Positions 15,203 through 63,981 of a DNA stretch of 64,000 nucleotides are shown here, piece after piece (the stretch's first letter is position 1; every line of letters starts with the position of its first letter). Both the position numbers and the translations under genes were made by a program. The notes under the pieces are model-generated. The model saw only the letters and a list, made by a program, of their open reading frames with translations. It was not told the origin of the DNA and did no database searches. Location: assembly GCA_000004985.1 (NCBI GenBank), contig GG738857.1, one strand, 5' to 3'. Source of the DNA: Naegleria gruberi (taxonomy: Eukaryota).

Positions 15203-15368
15203 TTTTTATCTTTATGGAGAGTTTGTTCATTTACAAGTAAGTTTAACGATGATTAATCTGTCTTTGGAAAGAGGTTAATGAAAGGAAGAAGTTTTGTTTG
15301 ATATTAACAATATTGGAAGCTTGTTTTTATTGATTCATTACAATATTGAGTACTGCCATTTTAAACAA

Positions 15369-17170: not shown

Positions 17171-17284
17171 TTTTTATCTTTTGAAACATCAAACATTTAC
17201 AAGTTCAAATTAAGTTTAATGATGATTAAGGTTTAAGAGTCTGTCTTGAAAGGAAGATGATGAAGATTATTTCTCTAAGAAAAA

Positions 17285-20212: not shown

Positions 20213-20256
20213 TTTTTTAATAATTAAATTAAATATTTTAAATATTTTTTTATTGG

Positions 20257-22879
20257 TTAATCAGTATTATTTAAAGATGATTGATATAAAATACAATCAT
20301 TAAAAAATTGTTGAACTTGTTTTTCTTTTTGTTTAAATAAATCTGAAGCATGTTGAAGTGATAAATAGGCCAATGAATCTAAATTTTGAGTTAAACAAAA
20401 TCTATATAAATGTTCAAATAAATAAGAATCATTTAAATGAGAAGCAATTTGAAAACATTTTTCATAAAATCCCTTTCTCAATGTATATAAAAAGTATTTT
20501 CTATATATAGTATGAAAATATGAATCTGATTCTAAATGTTTATGTAGGGATGCATATTTTTCTAATAACATGTCTAAAAATTCCTCAGATAATGGATCTA
20601 CATGTATTCTACTTAATAAAAATGTTAAAAATTCTTTCAAACATAATTGAAATTCTTTTGGATTTGTTAAATTTCTAATAATTGAATATCCCTCTTTTAA
20701 TTTGTGATGAATATTCAAGTGAATAGATAGAAAATGTGCATTAGATGCTGGTTCAATATTATTATCAATGAATGCACTTAATAATCCAAAATCAATTTTA
20801 AATATACAAATAGGTCCCTTCTCAAAACAAATTAACAATCTTTCATAGGGTAACATTGTACCTTTCATTAATTGTTGTTGTTGAACTGCTGCTAATTCCA
20901 TTGAATTGTTACGACTTCTTTTGAAAAATCCATTTCCACCACCACTACCACTACCACTACCACCACCACCTGAATAATTATTGGAATTATTGGATAATGA
21001 TTGATTATTACCTAATAAAATAGATGTTTGATTAGAGGAGGAGGAGGATGAATTAAATCTAGGTGATTGATTGGTAGCTGATGAGGATGATGAGGATGAT
21101 CTGGGTGTATTAGGTGCATGTGTACCTGAATCTGTGTGTAATGATGTTGAATCTAATGTTGAATCACCACTTGTCATGAATTGTACTGAACTAAATATTA
21201 AATTATTATTAGTTGTTGATGTTGAATTATTAATATTATTATTGGTAGTAGCATTGTTATTATTTGAATTTGAATTTGAATTAATTAAATTACTTGGTGT
21301 AATACATTTAATAATTGAATTTCTTAATGGAATTTGAAAATCAATAAAATTTAAACCACAATCGAATAAACAAATTTCATTAGGTGAAGAAACTAATAAC
21401 ATTGAACCTGATGGATGCCATTCAACATGTGTAGGTCTAAATCTACCAGGTAATGATTGTACTGTTATACATTTAAATTTAGATGTTTTACTATTTATAT
21501 TATCATTACCATATAAAGATAATTTAAATGATGAAAATAATTTAACTTCACCATTTGCACAACAAATACAAACATGTTTTTCACTTGGTCCAATTGCACA
21601 ACATGTTATTTCACTTTCTGTTTCAATAGTTTTATATTTACTTTTTTTAACTTGTTTTCCAATAATTTCATAAACACACCAAACAACTGACATGTTGTCA
21701 CTTGACAATTCTAATGTATGAAATGTATTACTTCTATAATTACTAAATGTATAAAATACTATTATACGACTAGCTTGTACTGTTCCAATCACTTGTATCA
21801 TTTCTCTATTTTTTAATATTTTTAATAAAATTAATTTAAATATAATTTATATAAATTAAATTAAAATATTAATTAAAAATTAAATTAAATTTTTAAAATA
21901 TTAATTAAATTAAAAACATACTTATCATCTTGTCCTCTTAAACTAATTTGTGCAATTAATAAAGAATTTCTAGTAGCTTGTCCACATAAATAAGTTTTTG
22001 GTAAATTCATTTTCATTGATTTTAATAAAGTTTCTTCATGTATTTTATCCATCATTAATTTTACATTTTTACTATTTTTAGATAAAATTTCTAAAAATAT
22101 ATTATTATAATTTTGAAATAATGGATTTTCTATAAATATTAATTCAGCATTCATTGATTGTACAATAATAAATTCATTACAAATTGAACCAGTTGATAAT
22201 AATTTAGATTCCATCATTTCATAAAATAATCTATCAATTTGTACTATTTGAATATCAGATGTTTTAGGATGTAATTTCCAATGAATTAAATGTCCACTTT
22301 CTAATATGGTTTGTAATATACATGTTTGGGAATCATAATATATGGAAATTACTTTAAATGAATTTAATTCTTCTGCACTTTCTTTAAATATTTTATTTTG
22401 TTTATCAGAAAATTCACATGAATGTCCTCTTTCTATATTTATATTATTATATTATTATATTATTAAAATTAATTAAAATTATAATATTTTAAAAAATTAA
22501 TTTAATATTTTAATTAAAAATAAAACATACTTTTTAAATAATCTTTTAATAATTTTTGTTTATCAAAATTATAAGAATAACCATTAAATAAAATATTAAA
22601 AGTATTAGAAAGTGATGTATTTGTATTAGTATTTGAATTATTAGATCTACCACTATATACTATTATATTATTACCAATACCATTATTATTATTATTTAAA
22701 GAAGATGATCGTTGATGTGGATTAAATATACTCCTCCGATTAAATGATGATGATTCGGATGATGATTGTTGTTGATTATTATTGTTGTTGGAGGAGAGAG
22801 TGGAGAGTGGTGATGTTTGTTGTTGTGAATATTGTTGTGTTAGAGTGGGTGATAATATTAATACATTCGCTTGAAACAT
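20257..22879 (-). CDS. Hypothetical conserved protein (802 aa), 3 exons: join(20257..21805,21921..22431,22531..22879); introns 115 and 99 nt; possibly a WD40/beta-propeller trafficking protein
   Basis: Track ORFs 22514..22879, 21885..22217 and 20257..21801 join in frame using GTATGT donors at 22530 and 21920 and TAG acceptors at 22432 and 21806. The phases (1 then 2) are consistent, and the intervening segments are more than 90% AT. Confidence 0.7.
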
Positions 22880-23152
22880 TTTTTTTAATATTTTAATATT
22901 TAATTTAATTGAAATATGTGATGATTGACACTTGATGAGTTTTGGTTTATTTAATAAATTATATCATCAATTAATTGATGAAGATTATAGTATAATAGCT
23001 GTGAATGGTTAGTAAAAGTACTATGAGTTTATTTGTAAAAGGAATGACATACGAATAAAAGATAGTGATCGGAGGAAGATGGATAATATCATGATAATAA
23101 TAATAATTATAATAAACATTGATGAAAATACGTCACTAATCTTTATTAAAAA

Positions 23153-25126: not shown

Positions 25127-26645
25127 TTATTGAGTATTATTATTATTTCTAGTTTGTCTAATTATCGTTTTAAGTTCAGACACTAATTGTTTGAGATCTT
25201 TAATTTCTTGCGTCTGAGCTAATTGTTTCTTCCACATTAAAACAACTAAATCTTCCAAAGTTGCATTCCCAGAATTATTTCTCATAAATTCTGATGGATT
25301 TTCTGCTAAATCATTAACATTTGTAATTTCATTTGTTGAAGAAAATAATTCTAATTGATCTGCAAGTTCTACATCTTGAATTTTCTTTTCAATTTGAGAT
25401 TTTAATATTGAAGCATCTTGTGTTATAATATCAACAACATCTTCTTGTGTATCTTTTGAAATATTAGTATTAGTATTGGTATTGGTATTTGTTAAATTAT
25501 TATTTGAGGAAGGAGATGGATGGGAAGGATATTCAGGAAAATTCGTAATGACTGGTGAATGAGTTTCTGATAGAAAATCTAAAGGAGAAGAAGGAGGTAA
25601 AAAAGGTGAGAGAACATTTCCACTTGATAATATACTTGTGGAAATAGTATTATTATTACTACCTGTAGCTGTTGATGAAGATGTACTTGTCGATGATGAT
25701 GATGATTGATTGGTAATACTATTACTTAATTTCCCTTCATTTGAAAATGCAGAAAGAGAAGATTGTAATCCTGTCGGTGTTGAATTACTAGGTTTTGAAA
25801 GAATTGGAGGTGGAATAGTTGGTGGATAATTTAAATGTAACATTGAGGATGGATCATGATTTTTAAACCCATGATTCATTGGGAAGAAGGTTGGTTGAAA
25901 TGGAATCATCATGACATTACTTTGGGTTGGTGGTTGTGATTTAATGGAATTGGTAGAGGATGAAGATGGAGCATTAATTGGAATAGTTGGAACAGTTGCA
26001 GTAGTTAGCATTGGTATCATTAACATTTGATTTCCTATTAATGCTGTATTTGGTGGTGTCATTAAATTATTTTCCATTGGATTGTAGAATGGAAATTGTG
26101 GATTTGATGGTTGAGTTTCATTTGGTTTTTGTTTCTTTCTCTTTTCTTCATTAGAAGAATCATTCTTTGATTTCTTTCTAACTGCATCAACACATTTATC
26201 TCCCATACCTAGTGATACACATCGTTTACATGGTCTTTCGGAATCACAAGCTGCATGAGATTGTTTACCTAATTAATTAATATTTAATTGATAATATTGA
26301 AGTGAATTATGGATATTATTTGGTGGTTTGACAATTCAAAGAATATGATGGTTAAATGCCTTTTTTAAAATACTACTACTTACAATTTACACATGCTCTT
26401 TTTACATACTTTTTCCTAGTTTTAGTTTTTGATGGTGATTTTGAAGGTGATGAAGTTTTACTATCGGATCGTATTGATGAAATGTCACTGTTAGAAGTTT
26501 GTGGTGATTCAGTGATTGGAGAAGATGAAGAAGATGAAGAGGAGGATGGTGTTTTATTGTTAGTTAATGGTGATGAAGAATCTAACAGAGGAGGTGGAGA
26601 TTCTGTGAATATTAATTCACCATCACAAGTTGATGAAGGCAACAT
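25127..26645 (-). CDS. Zn(II)2Cys6 binuclear-cluster (fungal-type) transcription factor, 2 exons: join(25127..26268,26384..26645); intron 115 nt
   Basis: Splicing a GTAAGT donor at 26383 to a TAG acceptor at 26269 assembles ACVNC|KQSHAACDSERPCKRCVSLGMGDKC, i.e. CX2CX6CX5CX2CX8C, from the two track ORFs. The true start is the ATG at 26645 (MLPSSTCDG...), not the TTG at 26663. Confidence 0.75.
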
Positions 26646-27113
26646 TTTTTTAATTCTTCTCAAAATTCTTGATGCTTTTAATCCACAACAGACAAAGGCT
26701 TGTTCTTTCTGGTGGTTATCAAAGCTTGGTGGAGAGGTTATTGTTAGAGGAGATCAAGAAGAAATGATATTATTGAAGATTGGTTGGCTTCCGAGACTAG
26801 GAACTTGATGATGGTGTATATAGGAGGCTACAATCACACCATCGTTTTGAAGTTTTTTATTTTGATTGAGAAATTTTCCTTTGGCGCATTCCTTAGCATT
26901 TCATGCTCTCATGTTATTATATTTGGATGAAATTTTAAAGGTGGTCAACACTAATTGCTTAACAAATCAATTATTCTTGCTTCCAAAACTCCTTAGCAAA
27001 TAGCTTGTATGCATCAATGTTTCCACATACATCATAAGGCTTGTTGTTGTATGAAATATTAATACAAGCAGGAAAGAAGAAATATTTTTAGAATTTAAAA
27101 CACAATCAAAAAA

Positions 27114-28332
27114 ATGAGTCATACATCTTACCTGAAGCAATTTGCATCAAATCATGCTTCTGTAGCCTCCTTGATCGAGGATATTAGACTTGACCATGAA
27201 AATAAGTATGTAAATTAGATGAAAATGTTTAATTAGAATAACATGATTAATAATAACCTTGTACGGAAATTAAATTAGGATGTGGCACAATATTTCTGAG
27301 AAATTAATGCAATTAGTTAAGAGTGATCTTTCCGGATCTGACTTGTTAGATTTTTATACAAACTTTATTTCATCATTCGAATTAAAGATTAATCACTTAA
27401 AATTAGGAAAAATAGTTGTAGAAATATCAAAGAGACTTCCTCTCAACAGCTCTGAAGGTTATCCTTTTGTTGAAAAAGTTTTTAATGCTCTCTCCAAGCA
27501 AGATAGAGAGGCTTCTTGTATTTTAAAAATTGAAATGGCAATGTGGAAGTTGAAGGAATCTGATCTTACTGCTTGTAAAAGATTGTTGGGTGAAGCTAAG
27601 GAAACTATCTCTACTTTAGGATTTGTTGATAATGTTGTAAATGCTGCTTACTATAAGACATATTCTAATTATTTGAAGCATATTGATGATCCAAATGAAT
27701 TCTATAAGAATGAACTTCTCTATCTTGCATATACACCAATTGAAGAAATACCTTTCATTGAACAACAATCTATTGCTTTTGATTTGGGTATTGCTTCACT
27801 TCTCGGTGATTCAATTTACAACTTTGGAGAATTTTTACAACATCCAGTTGTTGAATCATTAAATGGTTCCAAGGCTGAATGGCTCTACAAGTTCTTGATG
27901 GCCTTCAACAAGGGTGACATTAGAGGATATGAACAATTATTGGTTCATTTCGCTAGTGAAATTGAATCTAGACCTGCATTGAACGAAAAGAGAGATTTCT
28001 TGTATGAAAAGGTTCAATTGATGTGCTTGATGGAATTAGTTTTCAGTAAGCCAGCCGATGATAGAAATATTTCCTTCGAAGAAGTTTCAGCAATTACTGG
28101 AAAGTCATTGGATGAAGTTGAACCACTTCTCTTGAAGGCTTTGGCTTATAATTTGATTCGTGGTGTTATTGATGGTGTTAAGAATTCTATTCACGTCAGT
28201 TGGGCTCAACCAAGAGTTCTTGATAGAGAGCAAATTTCAGTCTTGAGTAACAAATTGAGCGTTTGGTTAGGTAAGGTTGATGAAACCTTGTCTTTCTTGG
28301 AAAAGCACGGTTCTGAAGAAATTGTCAAATAA
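27114..28332 (+). CDS. psmD13: 26S proteasome non-ATPase regulatory subunit 13 (Rpn9/PSMD13, PCI domain), 2 exons: join(27114..27205,27279..28332); intron 73 nt
   Basis: Alignment with human PSMD13: LYKFLMAFNKGDIRGYEQL..LCLMELVFSKPADDRNISFEEV..EVEPLLLKALAYNLIRGVIDGVKNSIHVSWAQPRVLD versus [78 protein letters not shown]. An upstream 92-nt exon (MSHTSYLKQFASNHASVASLIEDIRLDHENK) is joined by GTATGT...TAG. Confidence 0.85.
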
Positions 28333-28355: not shown

Positions 28356-31325
28356 TTACTCAATTGTGTGACCTGATTCCATCATTCTGAAAGAGCTTGA
28401 AATTGATAACAAATTGAATGAAGTCTCAACATGAATATCAAAGCAATCCAATTGGGTGAATGATTTCTCTGCAGCTGAGGCAATAAGAGTATTCTTAAGA
28501 ATTTGATATTGTTCACTTGAGGATGAAAAGTTTGATAACTTTGTCAAGTGCTTGTTAATCTTTTGATAAATTGATTTAGTTCTAGATGTTTCAAAACTTT
28601 GTAAAGCTCTTCTAATAAATGAAATATCAATATCTAATTGGAAAGCAGCATTTTCACAAACATCTTCAATAGTCTTGGAAAAATGAAGGAAAGTTTCACC
28701 AAGTCTCTCAGTCAATAAGGAGAATATCCTACTTGTGAATGCACGATTAACACTCAAATTTTGATTGGTAAAGTTATTATTCTGTGCGTTTCCATTAGTT
28801 GATAAATTAACATTATTAAAAGTAACACTAGTCATCTTTTCAGTCTTTGAATGAACCATTGATAATTCCAATAATAAATCTAAAATATAAGATCTAATAG
28901 ATGAAGGTGCAGGTGATGATTTCCAATCATATCCACTTAATAATAGACCCTTCTCAATACGTTTGTAAAATGTTAGAGATTTCCTTTTAACAAAATCATT
29001 AATCAATAAATCAATTAATGTATCATAGACAACATAAACATGTTGAACTGATTCTGTTTTCATAAAATCATTAGTTTGATTTTGTAAATGTTTGCTTGTC
29101 ATGTGAAAACTCAATTCCATTTGAGCAATTGCTTTCTGTGCACCAGTTGCGACAGTTTTCATATTATTTGATTCTTCATTATCTGATTTATCCGAATATT
29201 CATCCTCATCATCATCAATGAATGTATTTTGATCATCATCAAGTAGATCATTCTTTCCATCTTGAAGTGTAGTCTGATCATTAGAATGACTTTTAAAACC
29301 AGCCACAAATGCAGACAATATATTAAATACAATTACATTCTTAGTGTGTGAACAATTGGAGAGAGTTAATAAGAGACGACTATCCTTCTCTTCAATCTTA
29401 TTAAAATTATAAAGTGAAAATCTATATTTTCCACTATTATTAGAATTAGCACTATTCATTATTGAATTATTATTGGATGATAATTGTCTAAATGATAATT
29501 CATGGAAACAATCAGCAAATACTTGAATACATTCTAATAAATATTTTTCAACTTCTGAAACTAATTCACTATTATGAATTGAACCCTTTGACATGAATGG
29601 TCGAAGTAAACTCAAAGTTTTAATGACAAATTCTTGAAATTTTAAAGGTAATTCAGTGATGGTTAAAGTTTCAGAAATTGTTTTCCAATTTTCTAATTTA
29701 TGAAATCTTGAAATTTCCATAATAGTTCTATTCCAAATTTCATTTACAATATATCTTGTCATTAAATTTGTATATTCACCAAAATTGGAAATAAACTTTT
29801 TTGGTATTTTTAATTTTTCCAATTGTTCATTACATTTAATAATTTCACAAATACATTGACAAAGAGATTTTTGATGTGCAGTATTATTATCAATAGTTTC
29901 AATAGCAGTATTTACAATATCTGAATATTTAACTGTTAAATCTTTCATTAAATTTGAAATTTGAATTTCCAAATTTGAATCTAAATTCTTCTTCTTATTT
30001 TTCTTTTTTTTATATTTTCCAATTATAATATTTTGTGAAAGTTGCCAAAAATCTGGAATTGTTTTTAGTAAAACATTTGTTAAATCTGAAACTAATTCAA
30101 CAGTTTTCTTTTCTAATAATTGTCTAAAAAAGGAAGTATTACTATAATTAGTATCTTCATGATTAAATAATTCTTCTTGTTCAATTAATTCTGAAATATC
30201 TTTTGTATTTTTTTCATAATTATTTAAACATTTTTGTAATAAATCTTTAATAAATTGATGCATTTTTTCTAAATAATGCCAACCAGGATCAATTTTACAA
30301 TCTAAATTATTTAAATATCCAATTATACGTTCTTGATTTTCTGTTAATAATTTAATATTTCCATTTTTAGTAGTATTTATAGATTTTGTAAAATGATTTA
30401 ACATATTTTCAACATCTGAATTTGAAAAACTTAATTTTTTCAATAAAGTTTCAATTAATTGTGCAATATCTTGTTCTATTGTTGTAAAAACACTTTCGAA
30501 TAATTGAAAATGTCCAAATTTTTGTTTAAAATATTTGTAACGTGAAAAATCATGAACAATTTTCTTATATTCTTCTTTTTTAATATTTTCTTTAATATAA
30601 CTTGGTAAATATAATACAAATTTAGTTTTTTTAAATAATGTTAATACTTGAATCATTTCCTCACATTCTATTTTTGTTAATATTAAATATTATTGTAAAG
30701 TATTTAAAAGTATTTAAAAATATTTAAAAATATTTAAAAACAATAAATATTATTAATCAAAAATATATATAAAATGAAACATACCCTCTTTTCTCTGAAT
30801 TAAAGGATCAAATAATTTTTCAGCATCTTGAATTGAATTTTCCAAGGCTTGATCCAATCTCTCAACACTTCCATCTCTAAATTTAGCATCCTTATTAGAA
30901 CACAACAGATCAACAATATTTTTTGCTTCTGCAAATTTATGAATATTCCGTTCACTGAGTAAAATCATTTTCATATTCAAATCTTCCATTGTAGTTTGTA
31001 AATTCTTTTTGGCGCGATTAAATTCTTGATATTTGATTGGATGATGTTTTGTAGCTAAAAATAAATGAGGATTAAATTTATCAGATTCAATATCAACATT
31101 TCCATTTTGAGATAAAGAGGCTGTAATATTATATTTTTGTACTTCCTTCTCGGGATATGTTTGTACTAATTTTAATGGATCATCATCTGATTGATCGGAG
31201 ACTGATGTTTTTTTAGCTGCTTTTTGAAGAGATAATTTATAATATTTTTGATTAATTTCTTCACATTCATCCCAAGTTGTTGGTGCTCGTAAGACGATAC
31301 CACTTCCGTAGACATCACTGGTCAT
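28356..31325 (-). CDS. exoc2: Exocyst complex component Sec5/EXOC2, 2 exons: join(28356..30667,30785..31325); intron 117 nt
   Basis: IQVLTLFKKTKFVLYLPSYIKENIKKEEYKKIVHDFSRYKYFK aligns with the human EXOC2 region [41 protein letters not shown]. The upstream exon (FNPHLFLATKHHPIKYQEFNRAKKNLQ) aligns with [36 protein letters not shown] donor and TAG acceptor keep the frame. Confidence 0.75.
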
Positions 31326-34311: not shown

Positions 34312-36156
34312 ATGCAACAACAACAACTCAACAGTTACTCATTCCTTGAAGAGGAAGAAGAAGAGGAGAGAATGCAATCCATGCCATCTCTACCAGTATC
34401 ATCTTCATCAGATATCATACTCACTTCGTCAACAATAATTGACAATGAAAATAGTGATGATAATGAAATGATTGATAATGATGATAGAAAGCAAGCAAAG
34501 ATTGGATGGAAAGATTGGATTCTTAATGGTTTTAAAGGTAAACAAGTACAGAATAATGAACAGCAACCAAAATTATATAAGATGAGATGGGTCATGCTGA
34601 TGATATTTACTCTTTCAATGTTTAGTTCAGTTTTGGCTCAATCAACATTTTCATCAGTTGGGTAAGTTGAGAATATTATCAATTCTTTTGAATTCTAATG
34701 CCATTCAATTACATTTATAAATGAAATGCATTCATTTTCATTGTATATTATTTAATAATAATATTTATTACAAAAAAATAGAACAATAATGATGAAATAT
34801 TATAATGTTCCAAATGAGAATTGGAAAATCAACATGATGGGTATGATATTTCTCATTGTATCCCTTCCTTCATCATGGACAGTTAGTTTTGTCATGAAGA
34901 AATATGGTTTAAGATCATGTGTATTAATATTTGGAATTTTGACATGCATTGGAATGTGGATTCGTTGTTTAGGTTATGGAAAGGGAAATGAAACTAATTT
35001 ATGGATTGCATTCATTGGACAGTTTTTAATTGCCTTTGCTCAACATTTTGTGAGTAGTGTTTCAAGTTTGTTGAGTGTGAATTGGTTTGGAGATCGAGAG
35101 AGAACTCTTGTTTTGGTTTCAACTTTATTGATGGGTGTTATTGGAGGTGGAGTTTCATTTGCTATTGGACCTACTTTGATTACAATGGGTAAATCTGAAA
35201 TGGATGGATCTGAAATGGGAATGTTAATTTATTTAATTGGTCAATCGGTGATTGCATCTATTTGTTTAGTGTTAATTGTATTGTTTGTTAAGGATAAACC
35301 ACCAACACCTCCAGTAATTATGAAGAAGAAGGAAAGTGAAGAAGAAATGAATCAAGAAAATTTAGAAATTGAAGAGAAATCAAACGAAACAAATGAAACA
35401 AATGAAATGCAAGAAGAATCAAATATTAACAATGATATTGAGAATGGTAATTCACCAACACATTCTAATAATGAAGAAGAAATACAAGAAGAATCCAATA
35501 AGAAAGATATTTATCCAAAACAAACATTTATTGAAGGAATGAAAAAGTTAGTGACCTCTCCACATTTCATCATGTTAACCGTTGCATCATCCTGTCTCAC
35601 TTCTGTATTACAAACTCTTCAAATTTTAGATCAAATCATAACTCCAAAAGGTTATTCCACATTTGATGGCGCCAATTTTAGCATGGTCAACTTGGTTTTT
35701 GTATTAATTGGTTGTTTCGCATTAAGTATATTATTTGACAAGACAAAAAAGTTTAAATTGATAACATGCATTAGTAGTTTCATGTCTGTCATTGGATTTG
35801 GAATGTTTGCAATTATCATGCAATGGGAAAAGTCAGATTTCACATTAATATTTATTTACCTTTCATTTATCATTATTGGATGTTCTGCAATTCCAAGTTT
35901 GCCTTTAATCTCTCAAATGGTAGTTTATTCAACTTATCCTATTCATCCAGCAACTAGTTTAGTAATTTCAAGCGTATTTGGAACTGTGTGGAGTGTTGTC
36001 TTTTTATTTGTAATTAATATTTTACAAAGTCAATTAAGAGAAAAGGCATCTAGTATTATTTTATGGATGGATTTGGTATTATTAATTGTTGGTTTCTTAA
36101 TGATTTTACTTTTTAGAGGAAATTTCAATAATATTTTGGTCAACCAGAAAAAATAA
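34312..36156 (+). CDS. Major-facilitator-superfamily transporter (FLVCR/MFSD7 heme/choline-transporter-like), 2 exons: join(34312..34661,34782..36156); intron 120 nt
   Basis: Twelve hydrophobic helices. The acidic N-terminal tail and first TM lie in exon 1. A GTAAGT donor and ATAG acceptor join ...STFSSVG|TIMMKYYNVPNENW in frame. Confidence 0.7.
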
Positions 36157-36184: not shown

Positions 36185-36257
36185 TGCTGACGGACGGGAT
36201 CGAACCGGCGACCAATGGCTTATTAGACCAACGCTCTACCGACTGAGCTACGCCAGC
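36185..36257 (-). tRNA. tRNA-Ile (anticodon AAT)
   Basis: Reverse complement GCTGGCGTAGCTCAGTCGGTAGAGCGTTGGTCTAATAAGCCATTGGTCGCCGGTTCGATCCCGTCCGTCAGC(A). Anticodon loop CTAATAA gives AAT. D-arm and T-loop (TTCGATC) are canonical. There is one mismatch in the anticodon stem (27:43 T-T) and one in the T-stem. Confidence 0.75.
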
Positions 36258-41910: not shown

Positions 41911-42689
41911 ATGTCAACACAACCACCACCAACACAAACAAAGGTAAAGGAAGAAACCATTGAAGTCAAAGGTACTCCAACAGGAGGAGCAGACAACAAA
42001 TCATCATCAGCCAATAAGAAAGTCACAAAATACAAACCACCAGAAAGTGTTAACAAGGCACTTTCTAAAGGTTTACAATTTGCTCCGTATGCTCGTAATA
42101 TGGTCAATGGTGATATTTATATATTATTCATATTTGGAATTGTTGCTATTGCAATGGCTCAAGATCGTACAACAAGTTTACCTTGGGCAACTGTGCCAGG
42201 AATTTATTGTGTTGTTCTTTCTATATTTTTATATATTTGGCACTTTATTAGTGAATTTACAAAAACAGATAAGAGTGTTGATTCTGTTTTAGCTCCAAAA
42301 GGTTGGCCAAAGATTATTTGTATGATTTTATCGGCTTTTAATTATAATCCTGTTCAATGTGTTTTCTGTGCAATGTATGTTCTAATATTTAATTGTTATT
42401 TGGTTCTATTATTTACTATAATATTTAATTGTTATTTAATTGTTATTGTTATATTATTTAATTATTTAATTATTTAATTATTATCACAAAATATTATTAT
42501 TTGAATATATTATGTGATGATTTTAAATGTTGGAAAATTTGTATTGTTGTGGAAATTAGTGCCTCTGTCTATTGTTTCTTTTGTGTTCAGACTGCAATTT
42601 GTGGAGTTCCACTTGTTATGGCCTCAATTTTATATTTGATTGCTTCAATTAGACGTGAAGCATCAGCTAAAATCACTGGTTTAATTTAA
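41911..42689 (+). CDS. Small multi-pass membrane protein (197 aa), 2 exons: join(41911..42374,42560..42689); intron 185 nt
   Basis: GTATGT donor at 42375 and TTAG acceptor at 42559 join ...NPVQCVFCA|I|ASVYCFFCVQTAICGVPLVMASILYLIASIRREASAKITGLI* in frame (phase 2). Four predicted TM helices. Family not recognised. Confidence 0.6.
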
Positions 42690-42783: not shown

Positions 42784-43574
42784 TTAGAAACCATTTGGAG
42801 TGACATGAGCAGAAGTAGTACCAGAAATACCAACATTAGATGCAGATGGATATTGAACAGCATCCAATTGTTGTTTCTTCACTTGAACTAACTGAAGAAC
42901 TTTCAAATACATATGCCCAACAATTGATCCAATAATTCCAACTGGAATATCGATCATGTAAAATAAAAGTGAAATAATTCCATCGTAATATAATTGAGAG
43001 GAAGCAGAACCTGCAAAGAAACTTGGTAAGGAAAAGATAAAGAATGTGAAAAAGACAAAAATTGATCCAAATGTAACTCCAAATGCATGAAATTTAGCAG
43101 CAGTTTCGTTTTGTTTAAAAACTCCAATAATTCCACAAACTCCAATTAAGAGAATACAAATATCCATTGGAATTAAGAATAAATTAGATGTACCAAATAA
43201 TGGTACTTGTTTAGCATACCAAACAATCATGGCAATAAAGTGATGAACAGACAACAATCCACCTAATTTAGTTTAATTTCCAATAAATATTAACATGTTA
43301 AAAACATACCCATTACTGTAATGATAATAGAAGTAATACCACATGCAAGTTTCCAATTCTTGAAATTTGTAACACTTGGGTTGAAAGGAGTTGAATTAGT
43401 TTGTTGAGGATTAGGATAATGGTTTGGAGGAGGAAGTGAATTAAATGATGAATGATTTCCTGCATTATTTGAATAATAAACAGGTTGTGGTTGAAAAACA
43501 GAGGCAGATGATGGTCGGACAGTTGGTTCATCACCAAGTTGGTCGCTGTGAATAAGATATTCAGTGTTCGACAT
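42784..43574 (-). CDS. Membrane protein with a Pro/Asn-rich N-terminus and 4 TM helices, 2 exons: join(42784..43262,43310..43574); intron 47 nt
   Basis: GTATGT donor and TTAG acceptor join ...SIIITVM|G|GLLSVHHFIAMIVWYAK... in phase 1. The intron is only 47 nt. Confidence 0.6.
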
Positions 43575-47396: not shown

Positions 47397-48187
47397 TTTT
47401 TTCAATTAATTTTTAATAAGGAAGGCAATCAATTTTAAAATTCCGCCTAAATTTTGTAAGCCGAATATTCATTCCGCATCGATGCGGTAAGGATGACCCA
47501 CTCACCTCACCAAACTTTGCTACAGCCTTAATTGTTCTTTACGAGACCACATAAAGACTTGACCTCACTACCAAATAAATTTTCATGAACTCTCAGTAAG
47601 TAAGAAAATTGTAAAGTAATTTTGTATTCTGCTAGAGAATAAAGGATATTGAAATGAAAATCTTTGAAGGTAGTACATAAGGTGATGGGTAATGATGTCG
47701 TTGATAACATGTACTGACCTCAATAACAAAGATCTTCAAGTGTTTGATTTGACAACTTGACTATTTGTAAGAATTTTCTTTAATTAATCATTTGATCAAA
47801 ATATCCAAATTTCAACCAGATCAATGACGAGTAGAGATGAGTGTTTAGGTTGGTACTAAGATGATGATCAAAGTACCAGCCACATTCGAATTGAATAAAA
47901 CAAGTTGCGGCTTTCATGTTGGTAGGTACCGAAGCTATTTTTTCTTGCAAGACACACCAGTTGGTGCCACCAGCAGACTATTGAAGAAGGTGGTAATGCA
48001 ATGAGTTTTTAGGGGCAATTAAAAAAAATACCAACGAACCTCACCAATTTTTTGCAACCAACTGTCTTGACAAAGTACTCACCTCCTTTTTGAATTTTGT
48101 CTTGTTGCAGTGTTGGTGCGCATTTAAAGAGAAGAACGTTAGAACATATCAATTTGACCCCAATATACATATTAATTCATCATCATC

Positions 48188-51700: not shown

Positions 51701-52641
51701 ATGCAACAATTGCCATCATCAATGCACTCTTTTGGAATGGGAGGCTTTCCTCCTCAAACACAAATGGGATCATCAGAGACTGAACTATTACAAATGATAT
51801 TGGATTTATTAAATCATAATACAAGAGAAAGCGCTTTAATGGATCTTTCGAAAAGAAGAGATTCTTTCCCCAATTTAGCTACAGTTTTGTGGTTTTCTAC
51901 AGGGGTAATGTCTGTTTTATTGCAGGAAATTGTGTCGGTGTATGATCTTCTTGATCCTCCACACTTGACATCAGCAGCATCAAATAGAGTTTGTAACGCT
52001 TTGGCTTTACTTCAATGTGTTGCTTCTCATCCAGAAACCCGTCCACATTTCCTCAATGGTATGTGTTTCCGAAAATTATAATTTTAACATCATCATCATC
52101 AGCCCACATTCCTTTGTTTATGTATCCTTTCCTAAATACCGTTACTAAGAGTAAATCATTTGAATATTTAAGATTAACATCATTAGGTGTTATTGGAGCT
52201 TTAGTGAAATCAGACGAGGATGAAGTTATTAATTTTTTACTTCCTACAGAAATAATTCCATTATGTTTACGTATTATGGAGAGTGGAACAGAACTTTCAC
52301 AGACAGTGGCTACATTTATAATACAAAAGATTTTAACTTTCGACAAGGGATTACATTACATTTGTGCCACACCTGATCGTTTTTATGCTGTTTGCTCAGT
52401 TTTTGGAACAATGGTAAATGATAATCCTTCTTTCAGACTTTTAAAACACATTATAAGATGTTATTTACGTTTATCTGAACATGCTAAAGCTAGAGATGCT
52501 CTCAGTCAATGTTTACCACCATCTTTGAGAGACAAGACTTTCCAAAAGTTTTATGATAGTGATACTAATTTAAAACAAGTCATTTTGAATTTACTAACAA
52601 GAATTGGTGACTTGGAAGCTTATCAAAGACTGTGTAATTAG
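51701..52641 (+). CDS. cnot9: CCR4-NOT complex subunit 9 (CNOT9/Rcd1), 2 exons: join(51701..52058,52103..52641); intron 44 nt
   Basis: [25 protein letters not shown]|A|[77 protein letters not shown] is near-identical to human CNOT9. A 44-nt GTATGT...CAG intron must be removed to keep the frame. Confidence 0.9.
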
Positions 52642-55440: not shown

Positions 55441-56250
55441 ATGTTCATAAAAAAAGGCTTTGTTAATCATAAGAGAATTAGCAAGTTTGGTGGCCAAACC
55501 AGAACATTGAACGGAAATATTAAAACAATAATAGGAATGTTAGGAAATAATAATCCATCATCAATTAATTATTTGGAAAATAATTTATCAGCAACAAGAC
55601 AATTTTCGAAAAGTAATAATTTAAAATCTACTACTTCTCCTTCCAGTGATGCTGCTGATGATTCATATTTCAATATTTCAGTTCAAATTAATCAGGATGG
55701 TATTCTGTTTAAGGAATATCCATTTGCACTGAGTAGTGTAGGAAGAGGAAATTCAATTGTTCCATTTCAAGCAATTCGTGAATTTATTCTTGATGATTCA
55801 AATCATGCAGAGATTAGAACACATAATAATGAAATTCTCTTTATGAGATGTGATTTTAATATTGAGGATTTGAAAAAAACAAACATTCCAATATATACAA
55901 GGCAGTCTATTGATCTGTGGTCAGATATTACTGAACCGTTCTTGGATTCGAGCGTTCCTCAGGTTGAAGAGAAAGTGGAACAATTAATTTCTAGATATTC
56001 AATTTCTAGAGAGGAATGTGAAAAATTATATTCAATTATTTCAGAGCCAGTGTTTGCCTACAATTTTGAAACCATGCTATGGGAATATGTTTCTTTGGAT
56101 TTGGTTGATGTATTGTCATCTTTGGATAAAAATTGTCCTCTCTCTCAAAAACCATTATCAGAAGAGAAATTTAAAGAGTTTTACAATTATGCCAATAATT
56201 TTACACTGAAATACGAAAATAGAAATGATTTTACAAAGTATACGGAATAA
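55441..56250 (+). CDS. Hypothetical protein (269 aa); its last 110 bp plus 3' UTR are duplicated at 57417..57580
   Basis: ORF with ATG start. No domain recognised. Confidence 0.5.
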   Translation: MFIKKGFVNHKRISKFGGQTRTLNGNIKTIIGMLGNNNPSSINYLENNLSATRQFSKSNNLKSTTSPSSDAADDSYFNISVQINQDGILFKEYPFALSSVGRGNSIVPFQAIREFILDDSNHAEIRTHNNEILFMRCDFNIEDLKKTNIPIYTRQSIDLWSDITEPFLDSSVPQVEEKVEQLISRYSISREECEKLYSIISEPVFAYNFETMLWEYVSLDLVDVLSSLDKNCPLSQKPLSEEKFKEFYNYANNFTLKYENRNDFTKYTE

Positions 56251-56308
56251 TTTTGGATCAATGATAAAGGAATTTATGACCGAATTAGATGCTTATTTGT
56301 TTTTATTA
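56139..56308 (+). repeat. Direct repeat copy A (about 170 bp: 3' end of gene 55441..56250 plus downstream); copy B at 57417..57580 (about 92% identity, 7-bp deletion)
   Basis: TCTCTCAAAAACCATTATCAGAAGAGAAATTTAAAGAGTTTTACAATTATGCCAATAATTTTAC...GTATACGGAATAATTTTGGAT.AATGATAAAGGAATTTATGA occurs twice, flanking the F-box/LRR ORF 56401..57364. Confidence 0.85.
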
Positions 56309-56400
56309 TTATTTAATATATAAGTGAATGGAACCAATTAACAAATCTTAATATTAGTGGTAATTGGATTTGTATTATTTATGGTGAGGTTGGGTGTGTC

Positions 56401-57364
56401 TTGATAAGGGTCGTAATTATGACAATCTTCCCTCAGGAATGTCATAACACCACCCAGTTCAGTTTTGAACCCAGTAAAGAACAGTGTAAAAAAATGGAAC
56501 AACATAATTCATCAATTATTTTGTCTGATGATATTGTTAATGAAATTCTATCTTTCTTTGATGATTTTAAATTTCTAATCATGAATTGTTCATTAATTTC
56601 TAAACAGTGGTATAATATTATATTATCAACATGTTATCATCTTTCGTGTAAATGTAATAACAAACTTGAATTGAATGGAGAATTTTTACAAAATATTTCA
56701 TCATTAGAAATTGTTAAAGTTACATTGTTTGGTGATTTAAAATTAATTTGTCAATTGAAACAATTAATAAGACTCAATATTTCTAATAATAACATTGATA
56801 GTGAAGACGCTAAATATCAGTGGTCAATTAAAACAATTAACTAGTCTTGATATTTCTAGCAATGCTATTGGTAATGAAGGTGCCCAATATATAAGTGAAT
56901 TGAAACAATTAACATATCTTAATATTAATTGTGCATGGATTGATATTGAAGGAGTTAAATATATTAGTAGTCAATTAAAACAATTAAACCATCTTGATAT
57001 CAGTTATAATAATATTGGTATTGAAGGAGCTAAATATATTAGTGAATTGAAACAATTAACAAATCTTAATATTTCTGATAATAGTATTGGTATTGATGGT
57101 GCTCAATACATTGGAGAATTGAAACAATTAACATATCTTAATATTGGTTCTAATAATATTAGTGATGAGGGTGTTAAATATTTTAAAGAATTAAAACAAT
57201 TAACTCATCTTAATATTTCTGACAATAATATTAGTGATGAGGGAGTAAAACATTTTAAGGAATTAAAACAATTGACACATCTTGATATTCGAAAAAATAA
57301 TATTGGTGATGAAGGCATTGAATATTTGTTTCAATTAAAACAATTGACCAAACTTGAAATTTAA
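56401..57364 (+). pseudogene. F-box/LRR (RNI-type repeat) gene carrying a -2 frameshift at about 56817; likely recently duplicated or inserted and disrupted
   Basis: F-box-like N-terminus (LSDDIVNEILSFFDDFKFLIMNCSLISKQWYNII), then 24-aa repeats LKQLTxLxISxNxIGxEGAKYISE. The repeat phase breaks (...NNIDSEDAKY | (at)C AGT GGT = ISGQLKQLTSLDISSN), giving two overlapping track ORFs (56401..56844 and 56795..57364). The gene is flanked by the 170-bp direct repeats. Confidence 0.6.
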
Positions 57365-57586: not shown

Positions 57587-58546
57587 CTATGGACTTGATC
57601 CAATAATTTGCATTGTCCAAGATTCGTTTGTTCCAATTGAGCTTGCAAATGAAACATTTCCAGAAGCATCAGCAGAAAGATACTGACCTGTCCATGATTT
57701 GAAAGCATAACCACCAACAGCAGGAACAGCTTCAAACTTTTCCCAAGGACCAATTGCAGTTCTATTATCAGCAATGGTATTATTCTGTTCGCAACACAAA
57801 TAAGTATTCCAATAGGTTTTAAAGGCACGAAGGAAACCATTTCCCCAATCGCTGTTATTGTAAAATGTGAAAGTTTCCCAAATACTTGCAACTGGACGAT
57901 TGGCAACAACTTTACCATTCTCAGAACACAAGTACATTCCATTCGATGCCTTCAAGTAGATGATTAACCAGACTTCAATACCACGTGGAACTCTTTGGAA
58001 AGCATTTTGAGTGATGAATGAGGAAGTGACCTTTGCAGATCTTTGATTATTAAAGAGAGTGTTAAAGTCAACTGTGATTAACTTGGATTGAATGTTGTGT
58101 AAATGATCTCTCTTGTCAACACCAGTTGTAATTGGACCTTGATAATCGATGTGAACATGATTCAAACCACCACTCTTGATAAAGAGATAAGCATTGACGT
58201 AGTTTTTAATACTGACAACCTTGAGACGTTCTTGGTCAACTAAGATTAACATATGCCTAAGATTTTGATTATTATAACAATATATGTGAAAACTTACTTT
58301 GCTTCGTACTTGTTAATACCCAATCTCTTCATTGCCTTCTTGAATTCTCTTCTTCTCAAGAACCCATTACGATCCAAGTCAACTTGATAATAGGCATTCT
58401 CTGCTTCTTGTGTTAATTGTTGAACTTGATTCATCATTTCAGATGGCTTTAATAATTAGAAAGCGAGACAACAACGGCTAATAACTTACAATTTGGAAAC
58501 CTTCAGGTAACCACTTTGGTTGAGCGTCTTGAACCCAGAATTGCAT
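57587..58546 (-). CDS. EF-hand plus C-terminal fascin-like (beta-trefoil) domain protein, 3 exons: join(57587..58256,58298..58446,58490..58546); introns 41 and 43 nt; start could alternatively be the ATG in exon 2
   Basis: Exon 2 encodes an EF-hand loop (YYQVDLDRNGFLRRREFKKAMKRLG). GTAAGT donors at 58489 and 58297 and AAG/TAG acceptors join it in frame to the track ORF 57587..58252, whose C-terminus (GYAFKSWTGQYLSADASGNVSFASSIGTNESWTMQI) looks fascin/beta-trefoil-like. Confidence 0.55.
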
Positions 58547-59359: not shown

Positions 59360-61279
59360 ATGGATTCACCCAACCATCCACTCAACAGAAGAGAAACCAT
59401 CCTTCAAAAATTAAATCAATCTTTCCATCGTCAATCCAACGACAATAACTCTCAAGTCATTACACTAAATGTTGGAGGTTTCTTATATACAACATTTAAG
59501 GAAACACTATCAAGGAAAATCAATGGAAAAGATCACTTGTTATCCATCATGTTTTCCGAAACTTGTTTAAATTTTGATTTTTCCAAAGATGAACGTGGAA
59601 ATATTTTCATTGATCGGAATGGAAAAGTATTTTCATATGTTTTGGATTATTTGAGAGCAGAGGGAAATATTGACAAATTTTCACTTCCTTTTAATGATGT
59701 TTGTTTGATGGAACAATTGGAGATGGAAGTTGAGTATTTTAGTTTAATTGATTTGTCAATCTTGTTGAGAGGAAGAAGAAAGTGTTTTAAAATTGAGAAG
59801 AAAAAGTATACGAAAAGTAAAACACCCACCAATGCTACTATTACTCCTTTTGATAATATTATCGGAGGAGGAAGTAGTAGTAGTGGTGTTGGAAGTGGTG
59901 GTGTTGGAGCTATCGGAAGTGTTATTGATAATGATAATGATGATGATGATAAGGAATTGGATGAAGATGATGCCGATGAATACTCATCAAGTGTTTTATT
60001 GGATGATGAAAGTGAAATTGATTTGGATTTTGAATCAAATAATGAAACAGTTGGTAGCACTATTATAACGACAAGATTTATTGAAAGAGGATTATCAGTT
60101 ATTGATCATTCAAGTGATGACGATGATGAATTTGAGAGGAAGAGAGCTCCACATAGTGCCACTACTCCAATTATAGGCAATGATGGGAATGATTGTGATG
60201 ATGAAGAAAATGATGAAGTGAATGAGGATGAAGATTCAGTTTCAACATTTGATGCTGCTATTAAAAGTGTTAATACTCAGGCAATTCCAACATTGGTCAT
60301 TAATCAAACATTGAAACCTCCTTCTCCTTCAATTGCTAAACAAAAAAGTCATAAGAGAACTAAGTCAACCTCACTTTTTCATTCCTATCATAATATCAAA
60401 CATAGAATTTGTAATGAGAAGGGAGAACCTGTGATTGGTTATTCAGAAGATGCTAGTGTTTGTTATATTTTCCCTAATTTATCTAGATATTATTATCCAA
60501 TTATTTGTAAACAACCTATTCAATTGAGAGGAATTGATAGAAGATTTGCTAAGAGTCATAATTATTTTGAGATTACAATTAGAAGTGATTTGGAAGACAG
60601 AATTGACTATGTTAATTATAATATTCCAGGTATTGTTGTTGCAATAATGACAAATAATCAAATCAAGACAATTAAGCAGCACCACAAAAAGGATTTACCA
60701 ATAGATCTTAAAAAAGAAACAGTGGTATGTAATTTTTGGAATCATTTCAATTGAAATTTACCTTAATTTAGACTAATTTCAATCTAAAGAATGGAAGTTA
60801 TTATAGCAATGAAGATGGAAAACAAATAATTGGTAAGTATTATAATCATTTAATGATGTTTATAATTTTTTAAAGCTATTCGAAGATATCTAGTAAGTAA
60901 ATGATATTGAAGTTAATATTAATTTTGACAATAATAGTGTGGAGATAGAGTTGGAGTTCACGTTGATACCACTACCAAGCTCATTACGTTTTATTACAAT
61001 GATAATGTCCTTTTCACATCTCAATTTCAATATGATGATCTAGTGTTGAGTGGTTCTAGGTTATATTTTGTGGTATTGGTCAAATCCATGTATGGAGTTG
61101 TGCCATCTTTCATTCATTTAAGAAGTCATGCTCAACATCCATTCAAATACACTTCACAACTCGAAGACAATGATTCAAAAAAGTTCAAATTACTGACGAA
61201 ACGTTTAGGAGACATTCTCTCAGTCATGAATCCAGAAACTGAACCAGCAGTCACAGCAAGCACAAGGAAAATCAAATAA
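59360..61279 (+). CDS. BTB/POZ (KCTD-T1 type) plus SPRY-domain protein, 4 exons: join(59360..60724,60790..60832,60876..60892,60938..61279), including a 17-nt micro-exon
   Basis: T1-type BTB (VITLNVGGFLYTTFKETLSR..HLLSIMFS..DERGNIFIDRNGKVFSYVLDYLR). SPRY C-terminus (GDRVGVHVD..KLITFYYNDNVLF..SRLYFVVLV) lies in the last exon, which contains track ORF 61043..61279 (its upstream TTG start is a track artefact). Phases 0/1/0 are satisfied only if the 17-nt exon 60876..60892 is included. Introns are 65, 43 and 45 nt with GTATGT/GTAAGT donors. Confidence 0.6.
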
Positions 61280-61424: not shown

Positions 61425-63981
61425 ATGGGCAACAAGCAAACAGCAGGAAGTAATTCGCTTTCTGGTTCGATCGGAAGTAGTAGAATAGCTGTTGATGTTG
61501 ATCAACATCATTTGGAAGAATCAATAACATCATTTGTTGCTGATAATTACGATCCGAATGCTGAGGAAGAATATGGCATGGAGGATGTACAAGTCGAAGA
61601 GATGAGATTGGCTGTAGAGGGGAAGATTGCAACAGCTCCATTTGAAATTGGGCAATGGGTTAAAGAAGTTTTAGAATATTCATCACAATATTCGCCAAGT
61701 TGGACTGCTACCAATATTATTGGTGAGTCTAATTCTTTTCCAAAAGTAAGTATTTGCTAGAAGCTAGGGAGATCAACACAAATAGTATGGAGATATGACC
61801 ACGTGTTGGGCTCCACAATCTGCAAGTGGTTCTCATGAACATTTAATTGTTGAATTTGATAATTATGCTCTGATTGGAGGTTTACATATTTATGAAACAT
61901 ATAATTGTGGTGCTATTGTTAAGATTTCATGTCTTCCAGCAGGTAAATCGTATAGTATTGAAGAAGTTGACTCTGGTCAGGTTGATAATGATGGAAATTC
62001 TATTAGAAAGAATCAAGTAACTTCCAAACCTGAAGATTGGATTGTATTATATCAAGGTAATCCACAACAGTCAAGTCTTGCTAAGGAATCAAGAATTTTC
62101 GTTCCTCCAATTAAGAAATATTGTTGTGTTACAAAGATTATCAAAATTGAAATGGACACAACTGACAGTGAATCTTGGAGTGAAATTGATGCTATTAGAA
62201 TGTTTGGTATCATTTGTGATTCGGAAGTTGTTGATGCTATGGCACCAGTTTCAACAGCAGTTCATCATCAAAGTAAGGAATATGTTGAGGATTTAAAGAC
62301 ACTATTTATTAATGAACCATCAACTGATTGTGTCTCACTCAAGCTCCCAATCAAAAAGAAGATGCTTGCATCAACTCCAGAAAACCCATTGTATATTGTA
62401 TCACCAAAATTGTATTATGTTCATGAATTTTTATTGAGATATAGATTCCACAATTCTAGCATACTCGATAAGTACATTGTAAAGAGTGAGGATGAAATTA
62501 CGGACATGTCACCAAGTTCAAATTCATTCTCCATCACAGAGTCAGCAGCAAATAGCATTATTAATTATCTCTATTCTGGATCACTATTCCTTTCTCCATC
62601 CATGTTTAAAGAAAGTGAAGAAAATGATTATACTTCCTCTGAAGATTTCGTTAGAGAAATATTACAAATTTCAAATGCATTTGGAATTGAAACTTTGAAG
62701 GAAGCTTGTACTCAAACTATTGAAATTTCATCATTGATTGATGAAAAATTCAGACAACATGTAACAATATCCATTTTCAACCAACTTGCTTCCACCCTCT
62801 CTGTCAATGATTTATATGAGGATATGAGAGCTGTATTTGAAGAGGCTTGCACAAAAGGTGAAAATTATGATAGAAGAGCTGCTCCTGATATCAAGATCGT
62901 ATTTTCATTGTCAGGTGAGGATGATCCTTTGACTCCATCGAGTAGACCATGTATTTATACTCACTCTTCCATTCTTAAGGCAAGGTGTGCTTATTTTAAG
63001 GTAAGTTTTTGAAAATATGAAGATTAACAAATGTAAAAGACAATGTTCAATTGGGGAAATGTTACTGAGAACCCTTTCAGATTCTCTTCTGATAACATCA
63101 ATGAAATCGATATTCCAGATGTGAAATATGAAATTTTCTTAAAGATGATCAAGTTTATCTATTGTGGAATCCTTGAAAAGGGAGAAATTACACCAGAAGA
63201 AGCCATTCCACTCTACGTTGCACAAAATCAATATTTACTTGATTCTTCTGTGAGTGCATCAGTCATCAAGGAGAATTTATCTGAAACTAATGTAATGGAA
63301 ATCCTAGGATTGGCCGTTCAATTCTCATATCAAGAAATTTCTGAATTCTGTACCAACTATTTAATGAAGAATATTGAACGTGTTTATGTGGATGTTAGAA
63401 ACAGATTCAGAGAGGAGAGAGATAATGGAACATTGAATGATGATCCAATCTATCAACATTTGAAAGAAACTAGTTACATCTGGGATTTGATAATTAATAA
63501 TGATAATTTGCACTATACATCCCAGTGGGCTTATAGATTAATTGGTTTCTCATCAGAATATAACGGTTGGCCAGCAACTAATGTTATCGGCCCTTCGAAC
63601 ACCTACCCAGATTATGGCGATATTAAAACAGCTTGGGCTCCAAAACCATCAAAGAACTCTAAGGAATTTTTGGAATTGGAATTCTATAACCCAACATTCA
63701 TTACTGAAATTCGTGTTTATGAGACATATAACCCAGGTGCTCTTGTTATGGTAACTGCTGTCACAGAATCTCAAAAGGAACAAGATGTAATCTTTGAACA
63801 TGAACCAGTTGCTCACCTCCTTCCTGCACAATCAAGAATCAATGTCATTCCAATATCTGATCCAAAGAATGTCATGCAAAGAAAGTACAAATACTTACGT
63901 CTCGATATAGATACATCGAAGAATTATAGTTGGTATGAAATTGATGCCGTTTTGTTGTGTGGATTCATAGAAAAGAAATAA
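61425..63981 (+). CDS. BTB/POZ-domain protein with two copies of an FBXL4-N-terminal-like beta-sandwich domain and an N-terminal MGxxxT myristoylation-type motif, 3 exons: join(61425..61745,61786..63000,63040..63981); introns 40 and 39 nt
   Basis: Repeated domain (EIGQWVKEVLEYSSQYSPSWTATNIIGESNSFPK|YGDMTTCWAP...EHLIVEFDNYALIGGLHIYETYNCGA and YTSQWAYRLIGFSSEYNGWPATNVIGPSNTYPDYGDIKTAWAP...EFLELEFYNPTFITEIRVYETYNPGA) resembles the FBXL4 N-terminal domain. BTB motif RPCIYTHSSILKARCAYFK|TMFNWG...EIFLKMIKFIYCG. GTAAGT donors; all phases 0. Confidence 0.65.

Follow-up and report, generated by a model that had tools for sequence, protein, structure and literature searches.

The 64,000-nucleotide (nt) stretch of contig GG738857.1 analyzed here (the window) belongs to the nuclear genome of Naegleria gruberi NEG-M (Heterolobosea, Discoba), not to that of a dictyostelid, and it carries 20 supported introns, including the 44-nt intron of the CNOT9 gene. 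These are very probably U2-type spliceosomal introns of the ordinary kind, in a compact protist genome. The original prediction had held that ultra-short introns are the norm in this DNA, which stands for one half of the introns (10 of 20, at 39–47 nt) and fails for the other (10 of 20, at 71–185 nt). Ten of the eleven introns that it listed hold as predicted introns, by identity of the spliced models with annotated proteins, by alignment with orthologs, solved structures and Pfam domains, and by intron positions in Naegleria lovaniensis; the remaining one, in a UBX gene, is coding sequence beside a frameshift. A 17-nt micro-exon in a BTB/SPRY-like gene, predicted in the same place, is also supported by comparison with related sequences.

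Short Introns of the Window

All GTAWGT sites and all adjacent pairs of open reading frames (ORFs) were scanned across the window, and each candidate was checked. The short introns, with donor and acceptor, are as follows.

6576..6618 (+), kinesin intron 2, 43 nt, GTATGT..TAG; retention gives a stop 3 codons on
43263..43309 (-), intron of the membrane protein gene at 42784..43574, 47 nt, GTATGT..TAG
52059..52102 (+), CNOT9 intron, 44 nt, GTATGT..CAG, phase 1, sequence GTATGTGTTTCCGAAAATTATAATTTTAACATCATCATCATCAG
58447..58489 (-), fascin/EF-hand intron 1, 43 nt, GTAAGT..AAG
58257..58297 (-), fascin/EF-hand intron 2, 41 nt, GTAAGT..TAG
60725..60771 (+), BTB/SPRY intron 1, 47 nt, GTATGT..TAG; absent from the original prediction
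60833..60875 (+), BTB/SPRY intron 2, 43 nt, GTAAGT..AAG
60893..60937 (+), BTB/SPRY intron 3, 45 nt, GTAAGT..TAG; retention gives a stop 3 codons on
61746..61785 (+), BTB/FBXL4-N-like intron 1, 40 nt, GTAAGT..TAG, phase 0
63001..63039 (+), BTB/FBXL4-N-like intron 2, 39 nt, GTAAGT..AAG, phase 0

Splicing of the CNOT9 intron yields a model of 298 amino acids (aa) (51701..52058 joined to 52103..52641). In a search of a collection of ~5.8 billion proteins, an N. gruberi protein was found to be 100% identical to it over its whole 277 aa, and the next relatives were those of N. lovaniensis (83%) and Willaertia magna (73%). Human CNOT9 (4ct6_B) aligns across the junction (FLNAHIPLF) with no gap, and the N. 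lovaniensis gene has a 108-nt intron in the identical codon and phase.

The 43-nt kinesin intron is one of two that enclose a 42-nt mini-exon encoding the P-loop (6534..6575, +), and the spliced protein aligns gap-free with the P-loop of solved kinesins. The 47-nt intron of the membrane protein and both fascin/EF-hand introns are confirmed by deposited proteins identical to the spliced models (listed in the next section), and the 43- and 45-nt BTB/SPRY introns by cross-species comparison (see section The BTB/SPRY-Like Gene and Its Micro-Exon).

In the BTB/FBXL4-N-like gene, the first junction (FPK/YGDMTTCWAP; here and below a slash marks a junction) corresponds to FPKYG/DMTSAWAP of N. lovaniensis and to the protein's own C-terminal repeat YPDYGDIKTAWAP. 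The N. lovaniensis intron is 64 nt long, in phase 1, and lies 4 nt downstream (L004 20926, compared with 61746 in N. gruberi), an offset that reflects either intron sliding or two independent events. Two additional introns of N. lovaniensis in this domain are lacking in N. gruberi. Removal of intron 2 restores the BTB motif ILKARCAYFK/TMFNWG, and the Pfam BTB match (residues 497–564) runs unbroken across residue 512; for the same BTB region, PDB yielded no match.

Deposited N. gruberi Proteins

Eight models of the window (seven spliced, one single-exon) are residue-identical to RefSeq/GenBank proteins of N. gruberi NEG-M, encoded on one contig of 573,072 bp. The models were compared with the deposited proteins by exact protein sequence, not by deposited exon coordinates; a chimeric query of junction peptides returned no homologs. 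Besides CNOT9, the matches are as follows.

PEPCK, XP_002679452.1, exact, spliced, 530 aa
MFS transporter, XP_002679455.1, exact, spliced, 574 aa
Membrane protein at 41911..42689, XP_002679458.1, exact, spliced, 197 aa
Membrane protein at 42784..43574, XP_002679574.1, exact, spliced, 247 aa
Delta-COP, XP_002679463.1, exact, spliced, 558 aa
Fascin-domain (fascin/EF-hand) protein, XP_002679577.1, exact, spliced, 291 aa
TMEM14-like protein, XP_002679450.1, exact

Deposited proteins identical to the spliced models thereby account for nine of the 20 supported introns, five of which are in the short class of ten. The short introns of this DNA are known biology that is mostly annotated already, and the additions made here are minor: the gene with the micro-exon, apparently unannotated, and an intron seen, among three taxa, only in N. 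gruberi.

Splice Signals and Chance

All 20 introns have GT..AG ends, with donors of GTAAGT or GTATGT in 18 and GTTTGT in two. The claim that all listed donors are GTAAGT or GTATGT is correct for the listed introns that hold and incorrect for the UBX segment, which starts with GTATTA. Retention of any one of the 20 leads to an in-frame stop within 1–51 codons, and all must therefore be removed to make the conserved proteins. The donor hexamer is not itself enriched: 55 ± 7 copies of GTAWGT would be expected in the window and 41 were observed, 18 of them at real donors. Frame restoration, exact protein identity, junction-spanning homology and conserved positions, not motif counts, are what supports the introns. 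Gap-free alignments extend across junctions in CNOT9, kinesin, PSMD13 and BTB/SPRY, and single Pfam stretches do so for BTB, Sec5, Zn_clus and Fritz. Similarly, the claim that each listed intron keeps conserved motifs in frame stands for ten of the eleven; in UBX, removal of the segment deletes conserved motifs.

GTAAGT and GTATGT are under-represented, with 23 copies outside real donors, which hints at avoidance of cryptic 5′ splice sites. Segments of 32–40 nt with GTAAGT/GTATGT...AG ends were also seen just 5′ of start codons (47596..47635, +; 26992..27030, -; 23021..23052, -; and near 44955, -), and these may be introns of 5′ untranslated regions.

The BTB/SPRY-Like Gene and Its Micro-Exon

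59360..61279 (+), BTB/SPRY-like gene, 594 aa with three introns and the micro-exon
60876..60892 (+), micro-exon, 17 nt, CTATTCGAAGATATCTA, encoding (A)IRRYL, between ...TTTAAAG/ and /GTAAGT

The three introns of this gene differ in their distribution among N. gruberi, N. lovaniensis and a metagenome contig of a third Naegleria-like lineage (L003, positions 1860..1990). Intron 1 has a counterpart of 105 nt at the identical site and phase in N. lovaniensis and is absent in L003. Intron 2 is common to all three in site and phase, with lengths of 156 nt in N. lovaniensis and 45 nt in L003. Intron 3 occurs in N. gruberi only, so that L003 lacks introns 1 and 3 and keeps intron 2. The N. lovaniensis gene range exceeds its coding length by 261 nt, which equals the two introns read there (105 + 156). 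Together with those of CNOT9 and delta-COP, BTB/SPRY introns 1 and 2 thus share position and phase with N. lovaniensis.

The codons of the micro-exon are kept in both other taxa (AIRRYL in N. gruberi and L003, AIRRFL in N. lovaniensis), where they are contiguous with the next exon: the orthologous sequence is CCATTCGAAGATTTTTA in N. lovaniensis, continuing TGTGGAGATCGAGTT, and CCATAAGAAGGTATCTC in L003. The annotated N. lovaniensis protein aligns gap-free with the model through KKETVT/NFNLKNGSYYSNEDGKQII/AIRRYL/CGDRVGV. Read from the sequence, skipping of the micro-exon would give a stop after 3 codons (G/TG TGG AGA TAG) with the loss of 113 conserved C-terminal residues, and retention of either flanking intron likewise gives a stop. 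The predicted 17-nt exon, said to be needed to maintain phase, is thus supported. SPRY (PF00622) is matched weakly, at 15.4 bits (E = 0.02) with a cut-off of 26.3 bits, in one stretch across the three junctions; a PDB sequence search with the SPRY-like region gave no match.

The micro-exon appears to owe its existence to an additional intron in N. gruberi, placed 17 nt downstream of an older, conserved intron. As the three lineages are roughly equidistant, intron 3 represents either a gain in N. gruberi or a loss elsewhere. Comparison of intron 3 with its flanks, the other introns and the rest of the window revealed no similarity (z ≤ 1.6), and an origin by tandem duplication or from a repeated element was rejected on these grounds.

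In animals and plants, micro-exons are internal exons of up to ~30 nt. The N. gruberi exon resembles them in being a 17-nt internal coding exon with canonical flanking introns and conserved residues inside a putative folded domain (the weak SPRY match spans it), but differs in that it is not separate in two relatives, where its sequence forms part of the following exon. The extra intron seems to have produced it as a by-product, and nothing suggests a regulated cassette.

A Frameshifted UBX Gene

12591..13952 (-), UBX gene, made up of abutting ORFs 13952..13575, 13588..~13340 and 13340..12591, with breaks at A-runs; the last ORF alone is annotated

A 53-nt intron had been proposed in this gene (13320..13372, -); no other GT...AG segment of 53 nt would restore the frame. 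The proposed intron is rejected here, as its donor is GTATTA, conserved residues lie inside it and the annotated model does not use it: the deposited XP_002679566.1 is the plain 249-aa ORF 12591..13340. The N. lovaniensis ortholog is a single ORF of 566 codons that aligns to three N. gruberi frames with shifts of 1–2 nt, and the alignment enters the proposed intron from both sides (GIKIKIPLFKI with SIRIRIPSSRI; NMNLYNLKE with NMSLYTLEQ). Two further orthologs from a full HMMER scan keep these residues (DYKNIRIRIP...NMSLYTLEQL and DYKLGIKLKIP...NTMAKYDLAEV). At the first break (~13575–13590), a canonical intron was also considered and rejected, with no GT in the ~200 nt upstream (the end of the first ORF); at the same break ~33 aa are missing, a block conserved among three orthologs. 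The UBX gene is frameshifted in the assembly; a pseudogene, a split gene and a sequence or assembly error are the candidate explanations.

A second frame break in the window was noticed in an LRR gene (~56250..57364, +). There the frame changes at ~56815..56820 inside a repeat unit (expected ...AKYISGQLKQL...), 2 nt being seemingly missing and no room being left for an intron.

Alternative Explanations

The UBX gene, with its three frames abutting at shifts of 1–2 nt and its conserved residues inside the supposed intron, fits an explanation that could be extended to all the short segments, namely that they arose as assembly indels or as lesions in decaying genes, with coincidental GT...AG ends. 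The LRR break near 56815, where an intron is impossible, shows as well that the region has breaks open to repair with invented introns. However, the other ten short segments are 39–47 nt long, with GTAAGT or GTATGT donors, AG ends and in-frame stops. Homology ends exactly at the proposed junctions on both sides, five of the ten are introns of annotated proteins identical to the models, and three have an N. lovaniensis intron at the identical position and a fourth one 4 nt away. This explanation is accordingly very improbable. A source in a dictyostelid other than D. discoideum, with unusually short introns, was implied by the original prediction, and the AT-rich window (~19–37% GC) and the N/Q-rich low-complexity runs of its left-half proteins do look Dictyostelium-like. 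D. discoideum shares with it an AT-rich genome, N/Q-rich proteins, GTAAGT-type donors and few introns per gene, but belongs to another eukaryotic supergroup, and all identity evidence leads to Naegleria. Exact N. gruberi proteins are encoded in both halves of the window (genes at ~4.8, 11, 13, 35, 42, 43, 52, 53, and 58 kb), the nearest homologs are those of Naegleria and Willaertia, and the window shows synteny with N. lovaniensis contig PYSW02000007.1, other close taxa being N. fowleri and Willaertia. A dictyostelid source therefore retains no probability. The statement that the organism is not D. discoideum was correct, whereas the reason given for it and the implied other dictyostelid were wrong.

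For the BTB/SPRY-like gene, the micro-exon might instead be unused, with a single 105-nt intron (60833..60937) or another acceptor, or the gene might be a pseudogene with a 45-nt insertion. Absence of the 45-nt intron from both other taxa examined would suit this, as would the lack of any N. gruberi protein returned for the gene, which was thus unmodeled by annotators. On the other hand, the frame shift caused by skipping loses 113 C-terminal residues conserved with N. lovaniensis, AIRRYL is kept in both other taxa, the frame of 594 codons is otherwise intact, and the supposed insertion has a perfect GTAAGT...TAG form and a length typical of the short class. The chance that the micro-exon is not used, or that the gene is decayed, is slight.

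Several points weigh against the interpretation of all 20 segments as ordinary spliceosomal introns. Every junction is deduced from annotation, homology and reading frame. The exact look-up found no deposited protein for the kinesin, BTB/FBXL4-N, Sec5, Fritz-like and Zn2Cys6 models, and likewise none for the PSMD13 model and a 975-aa ORF; the variants tried were kinesin with and without the 42-nt exon, five for BTB/FBXL4-N, three for Sec5 and three for the Fritz-like gene. For the BTB/SPRY gene, the search of 5.8 billion proteins returned no N. gruberi protein, the best match being from N. lovaniensis (55%), and its three introns and micro-exon are proposed from cross-species comparison only. 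Intron 1 of the Fritz-like gene is suggested by frame evidence only, as the sole intron without homology across its junction. A yTrAy motif, as a candidate branch point, occurs 4–30 nt before the 3′ end of 12 introns; in sequence of 3–38% GC such motifs are common by chance. The published annotation of N. gruberi gives introns a mean length of 203 bp (PMC8296547), much more than the 78 nt of the window. Finally, intron definition (see below) and the order of splicing are inferred.

Longer Introns and Length Classes

Ten longer spliceosomal introns, none of them listed in the original prediction, are supported in nine genes, as follows.

6434..6533 (+), kinesin intron 1, 100 nt, GTTTGT..TAG, 3% GC, rich in tandem repeats
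11180..11317 (+), PEPCK intron, 138 nt, GTTTGT..TAG; spliced product is XP_002679452.1
21806..21921 (-), Fritz/WDPCP-like intron 2, 116 nt, GTATGT..TAG; Pfam Fritz (261–445) extends across residue 286
22433..22530 (-), Fritz/WDPCP-like intron 1, 98 nt, GTATGT..TAG
26269..26383 (-), intron of the Zn2Cys6 gene, 115 nt, GTAAGT..TAG; removal restores ACVNCKQSHAACDSERPCKRC, and Pfam Zn_clus spans the junction
27206..27278 (+), PSMD13/Rpn9 intron, 73 nt, GTATGT..TAG
30668..30784 (-), intron of the Sec5 gene, 117 nt, GTATGT..TAG; Pfam Sec5 (49–574) is unbroken across residue 180
34662..34781 (+), MFS transporter intron, 120 nt, GTAAGT..TAG; spliced product is XP_002679455.1
42375..42559 (+), intron of the membrane protein gene at 41911..42689, 185 nt, GTATGT..TAG; spliced product is XP_002679458.1
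53247..53317 (+), delta-COP intron, 71 nt, GTATGT..TAG; spliced product is XP_002679463.1

The spliced PSMD13 protein (381 aa) aligns from residue 2 to PDB 8amz_O, with no gap across the junction. The delta-COP intron has a counterpart of 138 nt at the identical site in N. lovaniensis. Over 700 nt, an independent N. gruberi genomic contig (L006, Logan ERR1078381) differs from the window by a single additional ACA/CAA unit, which falls inside the delta-COP intron and makes it 74 nt instead of 71 nt. Use of a Logan/ENA contig as complementary DNA was abandoned, since the one examined is genomic, with the intron still present. N. lovaniensis lacks both the PEPCK intron and BTB/SPRY intron 3; its PEPCK coding sequence is contiguous at the N. 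gruberi intron site.

The 20 lengths are 39, 40, 41, 43, 43, 43, 44, 45, 47, and 47 nt in the short class and 71, 73, 98, 100, 115, 116, 117, 120, 138, and 185 nt in the long class, with a median of 59 nt, a mean of 78 nt and a short-class mode of 43 nt. The two classes also occupy different parts of the window: all but one of the ten short introns are found past 43 kb, and the AT-richer DNA up to that point holds all but one of the ten long introns. AT-rich tandem repeats with periods of 5–31 nt occur in seven of the long introns, which have 3–21% GC (6434..6533, 11180..11317, 21806..21921, 22433..22530, 27206..27278, 30668..30784, and 42375..42559); among the short introns, only kinesin intron 2 contains a tandem repeat. 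The long introns have the look of short introns extended through repeat expansion, and most of them are clustered in the AT-richer left two-thirds of the window. In five orthologous introns, N. lovaniensis has 108, 138, 105, 156, and 64 nt where N. gruberi has 44, 71, 47, 43, and 40 nt, so that all are longer in the former.

The density of introns in the window (~0.55 per gene) fits that of the N. gruberi annotation, which has 10,688 introns in 15,709 genes (PMC6142364 supplement). A further reading, put forward tentatively and thought rather unlikely, is that the 45-nt intron is a recent gain in the N. gruberi lineage, within the SPRY-like domain of an unannotated gene, and, more broadly, that there would be two classes of intron, one of ~43 nt near the lower limit and one lengthened by growth of AT-rich microsatellites following local base composition. 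If this two-class reading were true, the published mean of 203 bp would be an artifact of gene prediction.

Other Features and Synteny

Two 5S rRNA genes (15085..15203 and 17053..17171, +) were seen 1968 nt apart, each inside a copy of a 158-nt repeat (15056..15213 and 17024..17181, +; 93% identical). There are also genes for tRNA-Asp(GTC) (14316..14386, +) and tRNA-Ile(AAT) (36185..36257, -). A 44-nt spacer (20213..20256) extends from the stop of the Fritz/WDPCP-like gene to the ATG of a 975-codon ORF on the same strand; it was considered as an intron and rejected, as it has no GT inside and is intergenic. The Fritz/WDPCP-like gene and the 975-codon ORF may be one functional unit.

Synteny with N. 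lovaniensis PYSW02000007.1 (L001, L004, and L005) is conserved but rearranged, the PEPCK–UBX block lying in reverse orientation with respect to the CNOT9 block. Additional genes are present in N. lovaniensis at three places: three separate the LRR gene from PIG-P, an EGF-like one follows delta-COP, and three more separate BTB/SPRY from BTB/FBXL4-N. The N. lovaniensis PEPCK gene has a 5′ extension with 526 nt of introns.

Comparison with Other Short-Intron Genomes and Implications

Under intron definition, splicing efficiency is set by the length of the intron, not by that of the exon (PMC3488318). The short introns of N. gruberi and their strong, near-invariant GTAAGT/GTATGT 5′ sites suggest that in this organism the pairing of splice sites probably takes place across the intron. 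If so, exon length would set no limit on splicing, and both the 17-nt exon between the 43- and 45-nt introns and the 42-nt kinesin P-loop exon could be used without special machinery; these exons would be tolerated because intron definition leaves exon length unlimited.

Genomes with short introns and intron definition include those of S. pombe and of Paramecium, in which introns are ~25 nt long. The introns of the window resemble those of short-intron genomes (S. pombe, Paramecium and Acrasis kona) in having a narrow class near the lower limit, a strong 5′ consensus, an AT-rich composition and an expected tolerance of very short exons, but differ in being bimodal (39–47 and 71–185 nt), with a long class that lies in the AT-richer part and is filled with repeats. 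The minimum of 39 nt is well above the extremes of ciliates and nucleomorphs. In Acrasis kona, which is related, introns are 9–95 bp long (PMC11589745), and a minimum intron length of 30 bp was used in mapping RNA-seq reads of N. fowleri; short introns are therefore to be expected in the group.

Intron length and AT content misled the assignment of the organism, and the UBX case illustrates how introns can be invented when small GT...AG segments are used to repair breaks in the frame. The introns of the N. gruberi NEG-M genome (GenBank ACER00000000) have been annotated since 2010, reportedly by Fritz-Laylin et al. (2010, Cell 140:631). The present results agree with that annotation in organism, contig and nine of 20 introns, which are deposited, and differ from it in the micro-exon-containing BTB/SPRY-like gene, which has no N. 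gruberi protein, and in six models unequal to deposited proteins. The BTB/SPRY-like gene thus appears, from the protein searches, to be missing from the deposited annotation; it was probably left out as its 3′ end, with three tiny introns and a 17-nt exon, is hard for gene finders. Its micro-exon would offer a clean, small example of an extra intron placed beside an old one, in a genome with probable pairing of splice sites across introns.

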